Below are positions 1-15,097 of a stretch of DNA of 64,000 nt, in pieces. Origin of the DNA: Eledone cirrhosa (lineage: Eukaryota); assembly GCA_964016885.1 (NCBI GenBank), contig CAXHJY010000956.1, positions 42,978-106,977 of the forward strand, read 5' to 3'. Each line of letters begins with the position of its first letter. Position 1 is the stretch's first letter. Under the pieces are notes generated by a model that had not been told where the DNA came from, did not search any database, and saw only the letters and a program-made list of their open reading frames with translations. The translations under genes and the position numbers were made by a program.

Positions 1-48
<48 letters not shown>

Positions 49-163
49 TTATATGTTAATAGATTATTGTTATTATTATTATTATTATTATTATCATTGA
101 TGTAAAGAATGGATATTGTGTAATATATAACAATATAACAAGGCCAAGAATGTAAAACATTCT

Positions 164-243
<80 letters not shown>

Positions 244-338
244 CTTTCATCTTCCAATGAGTGAATAGAGAAGTGAACGAGGATTGCAACTGAAATATTA
301 CACTGCTGAGGAGACGAAAAACAATTATGAAACTTTCT

Positions 339-380
<42 letters not shown>

Positions 381-539
381 TATATGAGAGAGAGAGAGTG
401 GAAGAGAGGGTTTGTGAGAGAGAGAGAGAGAGAGTTTGAGAGAGCGAGAGAATGTGAGAGACAAAGACAGAGTGAGAGAGAATGTGAGAGAGTCAGAGGA
501 AGACAGATAGATATACACACATATATATATATGCTCACA

Positions 540-610
540 TACAACGTGTCCCCAAAATTGTATACACACTTCAAAGGCATTCTAATAAACATGCGTATAC
601 ATTTTTGGCG

Positions 611-612
<2 letters not shown>
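540..612. mobile_element. Tiny Tc1/mariner-type MITE remnant
   Basis: Starts TACAACGTGTCCCCAAAATTGTATAC, with imperfect inverted partner GTATACATTTTTGG at 595-608. Resembles TA-CAGGGTGTCCCAAAA mariner-type termini. Confidence 0.45.
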
Positions 613-665
<53 letters not shown>

Positions 666-849
666 CTTAGTACTATATTTTAAAAATCTGCCTGGATTAA
701 ATATTTGCGACTGTTGGATTCTTTACGTCAGTATGGGGACACATGTTAGTGCTGTCTTATGTGAAATGGTCGGTCTCTATATACTAAACATATTATCGAA
801 TTAATTTATGAACTCCGGCATCGACTTATACCGCATCAAATACGAAAAA

Positions 850-1715
850 TGATTAAATCGACCTCATTACGTTACTGGTATTTTAATTTATTGACCTTAT
901 AGGCATGAAAGGCAAAGCTAACCTCGGTGGAATTTGAAGTCAGACAGTAAATAAAGGATTACGATTTAGAGACAAGGGGACCAATTTTGGGAGGAGGTGG
1001 AAAAATATTAAATCAACCCCAGTGCTTTACTGGTACTTTAATTTATCCACCTCGTAAGGATGAAAGGCAAAGCTGAACTCGGAACATAAATAAATGTTTC
1101 CGATTCAGACACAAGGCAAATCATTTTGAGGTGATGCGAAAGACAATTAAATCTACCCAGTGTATTACTGGTACTTTATTTTATCGACCTTGTAACGATG
1201 AAAGGCTAAGTTGACCTCGGCAGGATTTGATCTCAGATCGTAAATAAAGATCTCTGGTTTAGGCACAAGGTAAAACATTTTTGCGGAGATGCGAAAGACA
1301 ATTAAATCTACCCCAGTGTATTACTGGTACTTTATTTTGTTGACCTCGGCAAGATTTGATCTCAGATCGTAAATAAAGATCTCTGGTTTAGGCACAAGGT
1401 AAAACATTTTTGCGGAGATGCGAAAGACGATTAAATCTACCCCAGTGTATTACTGGTACTTTATTTTGTTGACCTCGGCAAGATTTGATCTCAGATCGTA
1501 AATAAAGATCTCTGGTTTAGGCACAAGGCAAAACATTTTTGCGGAGATGCGAAAGACAATTAAATCTACCCCAGTGTATTACTGGTACTTTATTTTATCG
1601 ACCCCGTAACGATGAAAGGCTAAGTTGACCTCGGCAGGATTTGATCTCAGATCGTAAATAAAGATTTCTGATTTCAACACAAGGCAAACAAATCTTAAGG
1701 ACATGGGAGTTGAAT
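850..1715 (-). mobile_element. Tandem array of ~6 headless copies of a tRNA-derived SINE (family S1)
   Basis: Repeated TACTGGTACTTTATTTTATCGACC..GATGAAAGGC.AAGTTGACCTCGGC.GGATTTGA.CTCAGA, the reverse complement of the SINE body and B box. TAAATAAAGAT unit starts at 1241, 1370, 1499 and 1655 (129, 129, 156 bp). Confidence 0.85.
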
Positions 1716-2176
1716 TCGTTTCTGTATTAGAATTGACACTAGAGAACTTACAAGTGCACAGTTCTGTTGCAACTAGCAATGCGCATTGAATTACTGCAGC
1801 AGGGGTTGGATGTGCACATTTTAAATGATATTGAGATTATGAGAAACGGGAGTCTCACAAATCGATAAGATTGATAGAAATATGATTGAATTTTCGATAT
1901 AACATTTGATATTTTATGGGAGATGGCGGGCAGGAAGGGGTGCTTATGTATGTATCTATGTAGGTAGGTATGTATGTATGTAAACACATATATATGTGTG
2001 TGTATGTGTGGGTGTATATGTGTGTGTGTGTGTATATATGTGTGTGCGTGTGTGTATATATATGTGTGTGTGTGTGTGCTTTCGTTGTACGTTAGATATA
2101 TAGGTATATGATTATGTATACGGACAGTTATATATATATATAATTATGTATGTACATATATATGTATGTGTGTGTG

Positions 2177-2209
<33 letters not shown>

Positions 2210-2210
2210 G

Positions 2211-2246
<36 letters not shown>

Positions 2247-2347
2247 GTTAGCCAGATTATATATATATACATATGTTTCATATGTATATATATATATATG
2301 CGTTAGCCATATGTGTATATATGTATATATATATATATGCGTTAGCC

Positions 2348-2383
<36 letters not shown>

Positions 2384-2569
2384 GCGTACATATATTTGTG
2401 TATGTGTGTGTGTGTGTGTTTATTAACTCTTCAATTTATATCTTGGTTCCACTGAGAATAACAGGAATTCGGTTGGATTAAATTTCCACCCAGTGAAATA
2501 TGTGAAAGTATTGTTTGCATCCGATTGTGTAGGTAATGAAAGTTTCATATATACACCTCTGTTCGTACG

Positions 2570-2596
<27 letters not shown>

Positions 2597-2600
<4 letters not shown>

Positions 2601-3553
2601 TGTGAGAAAAACCACAGACCCTCCATCTCAACTCTACTTTTGAAAAGCAGAAGTACTGCGAAACCGGTAAAGGAACCAAATAAATATATATATTTTTTTA
2701 GAAAAACCACAGACCCTCCATCTCAACTCTACTTTTGAAAAGCAGAAGTACTGCGAAACCGGTAAAGGAACCAAATAAATATATATATTTTTTTAGAAAA
2801 ACCACAGTCCCTCCATCTCAACTCTACTTTTGAAAAGCAGAAGTACTGCGAAACCGGTAAAGGAACCAAATAAATATATATATTTTTTTAGAAAAACCAC
2901 AGTCCCTCCATCTCAACTCTACTTTTGAAAAGCAGAAGTACTGCGAAACCGGTAAAGGAACCAAATAAATATATTTTTTTAGAAAAACCACAGACCCTCT
3001 ATCTCAACTCTACTTTTGAAAAGCAGAAGTACTGCGAAACCGGTAAAGGAACCAAATAAATATATTTTTTTAGAAAAACCACAGACCCTCTATCTCAACT
3101 CTACTTTTGAAAAGCAGAAGTACTGCGAAACCGGTAAAGGAACCAAATAAATATATTTTTTTAGAAAAACCACAGACCCTCTATCTCAACTCTACTTTTG
3201 AAAAGCAGAAGTACTGCGAAACCGGTAAAGGAACCAAATAAATATATTTTTTTAGAAAAACCACAGACCCTCTATCTCAACTCTACTTTTGAAAAGCAGA
3301 AGTAATGCGAAACCGGTAAAGGAACCAAATAAATATATATATTTTTTTAGAAAAACCACAGTCCCTCCATCTCAACTCTACTTTTGAAAAGCAGAAGAAC
3401 TGCGAAACCGGTAAAGGAACCAAATAAATATATATATATTTTTTTTAAATAAGACTTCAGTTGCATTTTCGATTTCATCTTTTTTTCTTTATACTTTCAC
3501 TCGTGTAGGACACCTCGGTTATTTTTCATTTTGTAAAAAAACCTCATTTTCTA

Positions 3554-3555
<2 letters not shown>
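2597..3555 (+). mobile_element. PLE pLTR-like element (family H1) with a 9-copy internal tandem amplification
   Basis: Units start at 2605, 2700, 2795, 2890, 2981, 3072, 3163, 3254 and 3349. A unique 3' tail runs to 3555. Single-copy relatives lie at 11242-11423 (+) and 49211-49360 (-). Flanked by (TA)n. Confidence 0.75.
2637..2672 (+). ncRNA. Minimal type I hammerhead ribozyme, U3-A8 variant (first of 9 tandem copies)
   Basis: CUU-UUGAAAA-GCAG(AAGUA)CUGC-GAA-ACCGGU-A-AAG: core boxes, 4-bp stem II, palindromic stem III, GUA cleavage triplet (predicted cut after 2669), 3-bp stem I. Confidence 0.75.
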
Positions 3556-3631
<76 letters not shown>

Positions 3632-3644
3632 CACTATCTTTTAA

Positions 3645-3725
3645 ATTGCCTTGTCCGACGAACGAATGAGGACGTTTTTTGTATTCGTCTTATTCGGAAA
3701 TCCTCTGGTAATGAGGTAATTATAT
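3645..3725 (+). ncRNA. Degenerate hammerhead motif in a PLE-like fragment
   Basis: CCGACGA (U4>C), long stem II CGAATGAGGACG/CGTCTTATTCG, GAAA, stem III CCTC/GAGG, then TA. Stem I is poor. Confidence 0.5.
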
Positions 3726-3907
3726 TGTATTGTTTATTATACATTATATATATATATACAATATATTAGTAAATGGAAACTATTGATAAAACCATATTTA
3801 TTTTATTATATATATTTCAAGGGCAACAAGTTATAAAAATGTTTAAGCTTGTTGAATCCCAACAAATTAAATATAACCGCTGCATATATATATATATATA
3901 TATATAT

Positions 3908-4150
3908 AGTTATAATTTGGGAGGGCAATACTGCCAATAAAAACACACGCACCTGTTGGTTTTCACCTCAATTTATTATAAGTTTTATAAGTTTCCGTTT
4001 GGTTCGTTGGTTGGTTCAATAACCGGAAGGTTGTTTATATAGGGTCAAAGCTCTTTCGTCACACATTCTGTGACCTCTTCAGTGAATAGGTTTTTATTTT
4101 GTGTTCCTCCTTTCTTCTGTCCTACATCATCTTGTTTTTGTGATTTGTGA
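3908..4150 (-). mobile_element. PLE pLTR-like fragment with hammerhead at 4045-4085 (family H4)
   Basis: Minus strand reads TCA-CTGAAGA-G-GTCAC(AGAATGT)GTGAC-GAA-AGAGCT-T-TGA. The terminus TTATAATTTGGGAGGGCAA abuts (TA)n and resembles the termini at 8541, 16501, 62751 and 63306. Confidence 0.65.
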
Positions 4151-4192
4151 TTTACATGCAAGCTAAGATATTTATTTATTTATGGTTTTATT

Positions 4193-4361
4193 TTCTTCTT
4201 CTTCTTCTTCTTCTTCTTCTTCTTCTTCTTCTTCTTCTTCTTCTTCTTCTTGTCTTCTTCTTCTTCTTGTCTTCTGTCTTCTTCTTCTGCCTTCTTCTTC
4301 TTCTTCTTCTTCTTCTGTTTCTTCTTGTCTTCTGTCTTCTTCTTCTTCTGCCTTCTTCTTC
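4193..4361. repeat. (CTT)n microsatellite
   Basis: Visible trinucleotide repeat. Confidence 0.95.
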
Positions 4362-4657
4362 AGAAATGAAGACCACAAGAGAGATACAGAAAAGAACCCA
4401 ACCAAGCCCAGATCTCACCCTACACTACACCACCTCACGACACTCCACCACCTCCACCCTACACTCCCCACCCTCGCCGCACTCCCCACCACCACCCTAC
4501 ACACCCACCCTCCCCAACCCCCTCTAGGAGTTGTTACCATGCCAAATATTCTATCTCTGTCCAATGGTTTGGCACCATTCGGATTACTTTTCACTGCCTT
4601 TTTTTTCTGGTTCCGTCGGAAACTTTTTTCACCTCTGAACATCTGATATTTGTTTCG

Positions 4658-4697
4658 TCTACTACTGCCACTACTACTACTACCACTACTACTACTG

Positions 4698-4755
<58 letters not shown>

Positions 4756-5095
4756 CACTACTACTATTGTCACTACTGCTACTACTACTACCACTACTAC
4801 TATTGCCACTACTACTACTAGTAGTACTACTACCACTACTATTACTGCCACTACTACTACTACTACTACTGCTACTACTGCTAATACCACTACTACTACA
4901 ACTGCTACTACTGCTGCTATTACTACTACTACTAGTATTAGCAGCAGTAGCAATAGTAGTAGCAGCAGCAGCAGTAATAGTGGTAATAGTAGTAGTATTA
5001 GTAGCAGCAGTAGTAGTGGGGGTGGGGGTATTAGTAGTAATAGCAGTACCAGCAGCAGCAGTAGTTGTAGTTGTAGTAATTGTTGAAGTACCCGC

Positions 5096-5137
<42 letters not shown>

Positions 5138-5218
5138 AGTTGTAGTAGTTGCAGTACCAGTAGTAGCAGCAGTAGTAATGGTGGTGGTGGTGGTGGTAGA
5201 AGTAGTAGTAGTAGCACC

Positions 5219-5256
<38 letters not shown>

Positions 5257-5258
5257 CA
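4658..5258. repeat. (CTA)n followed by (TAG)n, an inverted trinucleotide tract pair
   Basis: The CTA run switches to its reverse complement near 4934. Confidence 0.95.
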
Positions 5259-5540
5259 ATAAAATCGGTTGAGAAGACGTAACAAAAATGGCGCCAAGCA
5301 AAAAAATGTATTTAATGAAGAGAAATATAAAACGAGGGGACAAGATATATATATATATGTGTGTGTGAGTGTATGTACAATATGTACATATATATATATG
5401 TGTATGTGTGTGCGTTTTTGTGTGTGTGTGTTTATATATGTGTGTGTGAATATATATATACATCTTTAATTCAAGCACATATATATGTATGTATGTGTGT
5501 GAGTTATATATATATATTTATATACATATATACTCACGAT

Positions 5541-5583
5541 TACGAGCTGAGGATCCGCTAAGGTGAAACATTTATTCTCGGTA
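5541..5583 (+). ncRNA. Probable degenerate hammerhead motif
   Basis: CGAG-CTGAGGA-TCC(GCTAA)GGT-GAAAC-ATTTATT-CTCG. Stem I CGAG/CTCG is present, stem III is imperfect. Confidence 0.4.
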
Positions 5584-5605
5584 TGGTGAACTAACAGTTG
5601 TGTAA

Positions 5606-8734
<3,129 letters not shown>

Positions 8735-9098
8735 ACACTACTCTATAAAAAATATATAATATTGAGTTTTGATTTGTGACTGGAGGAGTCAAATGTACAC
8801 ACTGCTTCTTCTTCTTGTTATTGTTGTAGTTGTGTTGTTGTTGTTGTGATTCTTTGAACACCGTTGTTGTTATTGTTGCTGTTGTGTGTGTTGTTGTTGC
8901 TGCTGTTTGTGTTGTTGTAATGGTTCTAACTCCCTGTTGTAGTTGTTATTAAAGATGCGGTTGTCGTTGTTTTTTTGGCTCATGTTGTATTTTCGTGTTG
9001 TTGATGTTGTTCCTACTACTACTTCTACTACTACTACTACTGATGATGATGATAGTACTACTACTACAGCTACTATTCCCTCTACTACTGCCAATTAT

Positions 9099-9280
9099 AA
9101 TTGTTTCTACTTTTGGCACAAGGCCAGCAATTACCCCAGTGTATTACTGGTACTTTATTTTATCGACCCCCGTAAGGATGAAAGGCAAAGTTGACCTCGG
9201 CGGGATTTGAACTGAGAATGGCAAGGGCCGTAACCCTATGCGTCAAAGCATGGCGTCCGACCCTCTACCGATTCTGCCAA
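9099..9280 (-). mobile_element. tRNA-derived SINE S1, near full length
   Basis: Reverse complement of the 11601-11790 copy, with A-box-like TGGCAGAATCGG and B-box-like GTTCAAATCCC. Confidence 0.9.
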
Positions 9281-9654
9281 ATAATAATACCATCACTACT
9301 ACTACTACTACTACTACCACTACTACCACTACTACTACTACTACTGCTACTGCTACTACTACTACTATGACCTCCACTACTGCTAATAACAAAAATTATA
9401 ATTATTGTATTAATATATTTGATATATATGTGTGTGTGTGTGTGTGTGTGGGTGTGGGGGTGCGTCTGTGTCTGTGTGCGAGTGGGAGAGCGTGTGTGTG
9501 TGTATGTTATTAATGTGGTGGTGGCGTCCTTGTTGGTGGTTTAATCCCCACCGGAAGTAGTTATACATGTCTTTTTTCCGGTGTCGATAAAATAACTAAT
9601 ATACAATATTTGGGGAAAGGACTGGGGGGGGGTGTCTGTTCTCTCTAATATTCT

Positions 9655-10360
9655 TGATGATGATGATGGTGATGAATATAGTGATGATGATGATGATGGA
9701 TATGAGGATGGTGATGATGGTGATGATGGTGATGATGGTAACGGTGATGACGATGATGATGATGATGATGATGAGAGTTCTGATGGCGACGGCGGAGCAT
9801 GAAGAAATGATGATGAATTTGAAGAAGAAGAAGAAGAAGAAGAAGAAGACAAACAAGGCGAAGAAGAAGAAGACAAACAAGGCGAAGAAGGCAAAGAAGA
9901 AGGCAAAGAAGAGGACAAACAAGGCGAAGAAGGCAAAGAAGAAGAAGACAAACAAGGCGAAGAAGAAGAAGAGAGAGAAGAAGGTAAATAAGAAAAAGGC
10001 AAAGAAGAAGAAGAAGGCAAAGAAGAAGAGAGAGAAGAAAAAGGCAAAGAAGAAGAGAGAGAAGAAGAAGGTAAATAAGAAAAAGGCAAAGAAGAAGAAG
10101 AAGAAGGCAAAGAAGAAGAGAGAGAAGAAAAAGGCAAAGAAGAAGAGAAAGAAGAAGAAGAAGAAGAAGAAGAAGAAGAAGAAGAAGGCAAAAAAGAAGA
10201 AGAAGAAATGGATGAGGTTTTATGATGATGAAAAAGAATTATGAACAGCTACATCAGCGAAAGTAGGACAAACAAGATAATGACGAAGAAGAAGAAGAAA
10301 AAGAGGAAGACGGGGAGGGAAAATGAAAGAAGAAGAAGGCGAAGAAGGAGGAGGAGAAGA
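9655..10360. repeat. (GAT)n then (AAG)n-based compound repeat
   Basis: Visible. The poly-M, poly-K and poly-S ORFs are artefacts. Confidence 0.9.
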
Positions 10361-10669
10361 AAAGATCATTGGTTAGATTTATGAGGAATGTTCTGGTAAT
10401 TATTTCCGACTTTTAAAAGCAACAGGTCGTAAATAATCCTCGGTAGCCATCTTTAAAATTAATATATCCTGCTGATGTATGCTCTTTCTCATACAGAATG
10501 GATCTAATCCGTTTTCACTTCAGCGCAGTGAGTTTCTTTAACACATACCTATCTAGCTAGCTATGTATCTATCTATCTATGTGTGTGCGTGTGTATATAT
10601 ATATATATATATATATACATACATCAAGCTAACTAACTACATAGCTATGTATCTATCTATATCTATGAA

Positions 10670-10738
<69 letters not shown>

Positions 10739-10805
10739 ATATATATATATATATATACATCAAGCTAACTAACTACATAGCTATGTATCTATCTATCTCT
10801 ATGAA

Positions 10806-10856
<51 letters not shown>

Positions 10857-10889
10857 CTCTTTCTCTCTTTCTCTTTCTCTCTCTCTCTC

Positions 10890-11173
<284 letters not shown>

Positions 11174-11241
11174 ACTATATATATATATATAATTGTTGAA
11201 GGGCTGCAGGTAAATGCGTGCGTAGCGGTATGGTGGTTGAG

Positions 11242-11423
11242 CAACTCTACTTTTGAAAAGCAGAAGAACTGTGAAACCGGTAAAGGAACCAAATAAATAT
11301 ATATATATTTTTTTTAAAAAGACTCCAGCTGCATTTTCGATATCATCTTTTTTCCTTATACTTTCACTCGTGTAGGACACCTCGGTTATTTTCCATTTTG
11401 TAAAAAATACCTCACTTTCTAAT
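11242..11423 (+). mobile_element. Single copy of family H1 with minimal hammerhead
   Basis: Near-identical to 3372-3555. TTGAAAA-GCAG(AAGAA)CTGT-GAAACCGGTA, with stem II kept by a G.U pair. Confidence 0.8.
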
Positions 11424-11600
11424 ATATATATATATATTTAATACATTAACAGAGAAAGCTTTAAGCAATACTACGACCTGCTTCCGTCTCACTCAACAAA
11501 TATTAGGATATACCTTAGTATAATCCCAATTATACGTTTGGGTGCTAACTATACGTATTTTGCGGATAGCCAGTTGTATTATTTTATATGAGACATATAA

Positions 11601-11790
11601 GGGCGGTGGATTGGCTGTATCGGTAGAGGGTCGGACGCCATGCTTTGACGCATAGAGTTACGGCCCTTGCCATTCTGAGTTCAAATCCCGCCGAGGTTAA
11701 CTTTGCCTTTCATCCTTACGGGGTCGATAAAATAAAGTACCAGTAATACACTGGATAATTGCTGGCCTTGTGCCAAAAGTAGAAACAATT
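11601..11790 (+). mobile_element. tRNA-derived SINE S1, full length, 20-bp TSD
   Basis: GGGCGG head, A box TGGCTGTATCGG, B box GAGTTCAAATCCC. The body GCCTTTCATCCTTACGGGGTCGATAAAATAAAGTACCAG resembles the Meta-domain of animal SINEs. TSD ATTATTTTATATGAGACATA at 11578-11597 and 11788-11807. Confidence 0.92.
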
Positions 11791-12149
11791 ATTTTATATG
11801 AGACATAATTAAAATACATCTCTCTTTCCAAACAATCGTTTCATTATAAGTTTTCTACAAATTGGGAAAATAATGTCCAGGTTATGTAGAAGCCTATATA
11901 TATACAGAGAGAGAGAGGGACATACCTACCAACAGGCAGACCATACAGAGAGCAAGTCATACAGACACAGACAGAAGTATGATAGGTATAATCGAAAGGT
12001 CAAATTGGTCTATCTACACCATATAGGTTTTATATATTTTGCTGACATCCATTAAGTTTCCTTTTAACACACTCGACATTTTAGATTATTTAGCATTTTA
12101 TCTTTCTAGTTATTGAAGAGGAATGGATCTATGTTCATTGTTGATTTTT

Positions 12150-15097
<2,948 letters not shown>

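Follow-up and report, generated by a model that had tools for sequence, protein, structure and literature searches.

The array of nine hammerhead-bearing units in the 64,000-nucleotide stretch of Eledone cirrhosa DNA analysed here (the window) is very probably a single-locus minisatellite of variable copy number. It would consist of an internal piece of the pseudo-LTR (pLTR) of a Penelope-like element (PLE). After a single short insertion, this piece would have multiplied through slippage or unequal exchange at the DNA level, and the hammerheads would be inherited passengers of little or no activity. A first-pass annotation had proposed an ultra-small retrozyme-like satellite, with the caveat that a pLTR might have given rise to the array passively, by slippage. 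It is the caveat that the data bear out, and the satellite reading fails, since exact-match searches placed the unit junction at no other locus.

TRF (period 91/95, 9 copies, 97% matches) and a motif search confirmed nine units of 91–95 bp with a hammerhead motif in each. The units start at 2606, 2701, 2796, 2891, 2982, 3073, 3164, 3255 and 3350, with spacings in order of 95, 95, 95, 91, 91, 91, 91 and 95. The element itself starts at 2598 on the plus strand, and the ends of family copies mark 2598–2605 as the 5' end of a short PLE insertion and a candidate pLTR transcription start. Units 1–8 (2606–3349, plus strand) are internal pLTR pieces, each with the motif, AATAAA and an AT/T run. Unit 9 (3350–3446, plus strand) carries the family-majority loop II and is continuous with the 3' part of the element. 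About 110 nt more of element sequence follow, namely the remaining pLTR to its usual long 3' end (3447–3556, plus strand); the positions at which family copies stop correspond to 3493 or 3556. Sequence inspection and TRF place (TA)n microsatellites on both flanks, at 2570–2597 and 3554–3629, and the former is the likely insertion target, (TA)n being the setting of most family copies.

The variants shared between units bear on how the array grew. The loop II change common to units 1–8 is present in only 2 of 164 family copies and is thus the derived state. One substitution is common to units 3, 4 and 9 (0 of 163 family copies) and another to units 5–8 (2 of 164), while units 4–7 share a 4-nt deletion. 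The single changes named in the first-pass annotation were also recovered: C>A in stem II of unit 8, a different loop in unit 9, and a G.U pair in stem II of the separate copy at 11242. All eight junctions are the same, which argues for descent from one event, and the changes shared in blocks fit repeated DNA duplication and exchange rather than one pass round a circle. Other dispersed repeats are locally tandem in the window, at 1210–1603 and 33443–34380 (129 bp x 3.1 and 141 bp x 5.7; TRF). Local amplification is therefore frequent in this region and does not call for a ribozyme.

When the genome was searched with the unit, many single copies were found dispersed through it, and they extend past the unit on both sides. 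Upstream, the longer copies show a TATAAAA box, about 1.3 kb of non-coding sequence and then a reading frame. In all nine loci fetched, which were chosen from 30 for reaching far upstream, RT/EN remnants occurred on the strand of the unit and 5' to it. The whole hammerhead-bearing stretch lies immediately 5' of the ORF in 17 of 25 loci, and a shorter part of it in 7 more. Because this stretch precedes the ORF and copies of it also stand 3' of the ORF, the unit is part of the pLTR. The natural 590-aa frame at L095:4141-5910 contains Pfam RVT_1 (E 2.3e-7) followed by GIY-YIG (E 1.3e-6), both above the cut-offs, and the atlas neighbours of the PLE protein belong to the same RVT_1/GIY-YIG families. 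A C-x4-C-x2-C linker at residue 460, before the endonuclease, conforms to the CX2-5CxxC type reported as a mark of Neptune and Nematis PLEs (PMC8557442). Judged by homology, the parent is an EN+ PLE with a reverse transcriptase plus a GIY-YIG endonuclease at the C terminus, present in thousands of copies. A 26-mer across the cut site has 13,678 exact genome matches (control, 0). A literature search of papers without their supplements found none on this PLE family, and no rates for the U3-A8 change discussed below.

The head-to-tail junction pattern gave 14 matches in 3 Gb, all of them at this locus (8 in this contig and 6 in contig C24), in exact-match searches that miss mutated junctions. The genome search for other arrays suggested in the first-pass annotation thus returned this locus only. 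A looser junction pattern found six further loci, and all six were head-to-head inversions. No head-to-tail copies of the whole short element with a spacer of up to 14 nt and the longer 3' end were found, and none of the first 100 genome hits had a same-strand neighbour within 2 kb; the same 100 hits included 19 head-to-head pairs. A retrozyme unit would be expected to be dispersed as a family of its own; this one is not, all 14 junctions lying at one locus. These findings bear on the idea that the array is one insertion of a mobile retrozyme family, for which a circular RNA was reverse-transcribed in rolling-circle fashion. Such an origin would suit the head-to-tail order of the units, their nearly equal length and the hammerhead that each contains, and circular intermediates have been proposed for PLEs and retrozymes (PMC4209133, PMC7229834). 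However, the confinement of the junction to one locus largely refutes it, and the outer ends of the array are the standard ends of single PLE copies. The block-shared mutations and the ancestral loop in unit 9 are unexpected from one pass round one circle, and a 95-nt circle presupposes an existing dimer. We give this origin almost no credence.

The second copy of the locus allowed us to examine the assembly. The window is colinear with C24:29860000-29926900, at 93–98% identity in all five stretches fetched, and the C24 copy has seven units rather than nine, with two identical 91-bp units fewer. Most simply, the C24 copy is the other haplotype, and the window's contig (C983) is probably an unpurged haplotig; misassembly of identical units could account for the difference between nine and seven. 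That the whole array is an assembly artefact, or its motif a chance match with no ribozyme behind it, is in our judgement very unlikely. C983 is indeed a small contig that duplicates C24, and four sequencing runs listed no junction-spanning read or contig, a result that neither supports nor refutes the assembly. Against an artefact, the two colinear contigs both carry the array, with the same private variants in the same order.

The ends of family copies indicate how such insertions arise. Among the first 100 downstream-anchor hits on C1 (its first 30 Mb), 53 begin between -5 and +12 of the equivalent of 2598 and 3 begin within 5 nt of the cut (+72), in counts where members of inverted pairs are not independent. 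The rest of the 100 comprise 16 that continue for over 430 nt and 28 with an end at some other point. The 5' pile-up point lies 72 nt upstream of the cut and, in longer copies, 30 nt past the TATAAAA box, from which we infer that it is the transcription start. Downstream, copies end at two preferred points 63 nt apart (tail positions 144 and 207), and inverted pairs often have one of these two 3' ends on each arm. The C1 ends can be read as a clear trace, left in the genome, of a pLTR promoter and of two starts of reverse transcription. Since the 5' ends lie upstream of the cut, the RNA that was copied mostly held an uncut ribozyme; the counts are silent on cut RNAs that were never copied.

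The outer ends of the array (2598 and 3556) coincide with the points where short PLE insertions usually end and not with the cut site. This suggests the following course for the array. RNA from the pLTR promoter of the parent element would have served as template for reverse transcription that began internally, and a copy of 217 nt would have entered (TA)n. One duplication may then have joined the T-run/A that follows the hammerhead to the A-rich start, and private mutations would have been spread in blocks by the duplications that came later. In the resulting transcripts, a hairpin is predicted to block the core of units 1–8, and this hairpin, together with an AATAAA in every unit, would disfavour long self-processing multimers.

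The motif of each unit reads CUU-UUGAAAA-GCAG(loop of 5)CUGC-GAA-ACCGGU-A-AAG, with the predicted cut after A2669, A2764 and so on. In unit 1 (2637–2672, plus strand), identified by the descriptor and by homology to a sister family, it comprises a 3-bp stem I, a U3-A8 core, a 4-bp stem II and the ACCGGU palindrome. The features of a minimal type I hammerhead are present, namely a core with a 3-8 pair, G10.1-C11.1, GAAA and UH, and the earlier assignment to the minimal type I U3-A8 class with a palindromic stem III was right. A fourth stem I pair occurs in 60 of 164 family copies; the array has three. A descriptor written after the motif had been seen matched ten sites in the window, the nine units and 11250. 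Among 20,000 dinucleotide shuffles of a natural pLTR stretch (667 nt) it matched 1, and among 20,000 of the 95-nt unit it matched 0. These figures speak against a chance match. In its favor, an Rfam scan of the kind proposed in the first-pass annotation found no match to the hammerhead models at 2600–3450 (E up to 10), nor did a scan of 1–15000, and a genome pattern search for a C3-G8 version with the stem II of the array gave 0 matches. Weak MALAT1 matches in the Rfam scans (E about 1) were dismissed as chance. The difference in substitution rate between core and flank (0.008 vs 0.023) was rejected as evidence, given the A/T-rich core and the neutral evolution of inserted copies.

The sister PLE family with a U3-A8 motif, found by descriptor, argues further against chance. 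Its pattern has 792 matches (e.g. L096:3785-3845, minus strand), and a related PLE protein occurs at 5 of 30 sister loci with 30–67% identity. Among the first 100 matches listed, read by eye, 93 were U3-A8, 2 C3-A8, 5 U3-G8 and 0 C3-G8. The sister family conserves the core, G10.1-C11.1 and GAAA, with the CCGG palindrome in 22 of 30, and varies at N7, H17, loop II (which is longer) and the stem pairs. Against a genuine hammerhead, stem I of the sister family is limited to 2 bp at 24 of 30 loci. Candidate covariation between just these two lineages amounts to one double change in stem I, whose score was equalled by one slid control, and two that were noted by eye in stem II. PLE pLTRs carrying the U3-A8 variant are known from published work, with about 1,300 matches in Schistosoma mansoni (PMC4209133). 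At the family level, the sequence comparisons indicate that the motif is probably a genuine PLE hammerhead.

Other core variants were also observed. In another organism (run X7; L147:1481), the same pLTR family is abundant and carries C3 with A8, a 3-8 mismatch, in 21,300 of 21,543 depth over 17 contigs; position 3 was unchanged in runs X4, X5 and X8, at low depth. This abundance suggests spread without a canonical core, and the mismatch counts on the side of a chance match. Canonical C3-G8 hammerhead-like motifs occur in other families of the genome (L106 near 811, L166 near 1969, L056 near 1301 and L068, minus strand, near 393), two of them with a 7-bp stem I and a CTAG palindrome.

Folding analysis predicted poor cleavage of the array. 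The rare loop II variant is predicted to create an 8-bp hairpin in units 1–8 (2635–2655 in unit 1, plus strand) that pairs the core. The predicted probability of stem II was 0.05–0.11 in units 1–7, in contrast to 0.73 in unit 9 and 0.80–0.81 in 73 family copies, in programs that ignore tertiary contacts and proteins. G5 is often paired in family copies too (about 0.7, predicted). The double hammerhead lay 8.5–13.5 kcal/mol above the MFE in all six adjacent pairs tested of the eight, in a calculation with neither a positive nor a family control. The circular monomer reached -2.4 and -3.6 kcal/mol (z -0.02 and -0.4) and was no more structured than shuffles. The -5 kcal/mol filter of a recent preprint was passed (-5.8), but via a non-hammerhead fold. 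The ACCGGU palindromes of different units are predicted to pair in the whole-array ensemble (P 0.24–0.56), which makes a dimer helix feasible.

These predictions concern a further reading, in which the array is local but a sense transcript cleaves itself as double hammerheads, perhaps aided by PLE protein, into monomers or circles of 91–95 nt that have not yet been reinserted. Every motif element is intact in eight of the nine units, and the palindrome pairing between units would assist such cleavage. Dimers and trimers of the Schistosoma minimal hammerhead are reported to cleave in vitro at a low level (PMC4209133), and a model in which a pLTR becomes a retrozyme via local amplification has been published (bioRxiv 10.64898/2026.07.22.740005). 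The 5' (TA)n occupies the position of the TATA box of full copies. A search of sequencing runs listed no RNA run with a match, a result that speaks neither for nor against expression. On the other hand, units 1–8 are predicted to form the blocking hairpin, the array belongs to the subfamily with a 3-bp rather than a 4-bp stem I, and the circular monomer is unstructured. AATAAA stands 9 nt past the predicted cut in all nine units, and the array is without the native promoter region. In the same preprint, one of nine predicted dimers tested cleaved, and the other eight did not. We therefore regard this reading as unlikely. Its fuller form, a retrozyme being born in which the expanded pLTR fragment is transcribed from the (TA)n flank and processes itself through palindrome dimers, perhaps with PLE protein, into RNAs or circles of 91–95 nt, seems to us decidedly improbable. 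If it were true, these RNAs or circles would be among the smallest known in animals, and if the array made 95-nt circles, one duplication would be enough to start a retrozyme.

A candidate intron touches the same region. A donor-like CG|GTAAAG overlaps the cut triplet (2667–2673), and within the 3' part of the element a pyrimidine tract (3481–3509) ends in AG at 3507–3508 (plus strand), a putative 3' splice site; a similar acceptor-like stretch is also seen in the sister family. From the sequence, an intron in the 5' pLTR would remove AATAAA and the cut site, so that a switch between splicing, cleavage and polyadenylation is possible. A genome search for a copy of the spliced junction gave 0 matches, but PLE copies are known to retain introns and the result is hence uninformative. 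Homology and motif searches found two further pLTR copies in the window: a separate 5'-truncated copy with one hammerhead motif (11242–11424, plus strand) and a short copy in which the innermost stem I pair is broken (49209–49358, minus strand). The PLE protein had no tblastn match in the 64-kb window. The earlier suggestion that host pre-mRNA might be cut gained no support in the window, where a listing of 61 complexity-filtered frames identified no host gene.

Our study places the array among ordinary minisatellites derived from a known kind of element, and the size of its unit is not new. It is a single instance in which a pLTR fragment has become a minisatellite; retrozymes have already been proposed to arise by this route. 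The locus nevertheless offers a natural test case, because one can see in it the parent, the junction, two length alleles and the order in which mutations arose. The family data are more useful than the array: there are more than 13,000 U3-A8 copies, with 5' ends mostly upstream of the cut, which agrees with a report that PLEs are copied mainly from uncut RNA (PMC11167929).

The pLTR minimal hammerheads described in PMC4209133 are likewise of type I, with a palindrome around 15-16 and G10.1-C11.1, and lie in pLTRs mostly as single dispersed copies. Unlike them, the present motif has a 4-bp stem II, no extra base after A9 and a 3-bp stem I (4 bp in a subfamily), and its copy number exceeds 13,000. 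The parent resembles the Neptune/Nematis EN+ PLEs described in PMC8557442 in its reverse transcriptase followed by a C-terminal GIY-YIG, its C-x4-C-x2-C linker, partial tandems, inverted 5'-truncated copies, (TA)n targets and an optional tail, although the optional extension is 63 nt here and 30–40 bp there.

Animal non-LTR retrozymes share with the array tandem type I hammerhead units, low GC and pLTR homology, according to PMC7229834 and 10.64898/2026.07.22.740005. The array also contains two or more units in a row that each bear a full type I hammerhead; by the formal rule of the preprint it might be counted as a retrozyme, but its unit is not dispersed. In contrast to these retrozymes, it occupies one locus with no dispersed unit family, its hammerhead is minimal rather than canonical, and its monomer is predicted to be unstructured. 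Animal retrozymes with demonstrated circles are reported to have monomers of 220–390 nt (PMC7229834). The impression in the first-pass annotation that the unit is unusually short does not hold against the published tandem hammerhead families, which are pLTR-related, span 51–972 bp and average 98 bp in one sarcopterygian fish (10.64898/2026.07.22.740005); the array size lies within this range.

The Poseidon element PAc of Anolis, as described in PMC11167929, differs in its C3-G8 core, against U3-A8 here, and in the start of reverse transcription, which lies inside the ORF in PAc, whereas copies here end upstream of the ORF start. Its hammerhead is reported to be dispensable for insertion and to cleave only with protein present. 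Like the family studied here, PAc shows two preferred 3' ends of genomic copies and keeps an uncut hammerhead (PMC11167929).
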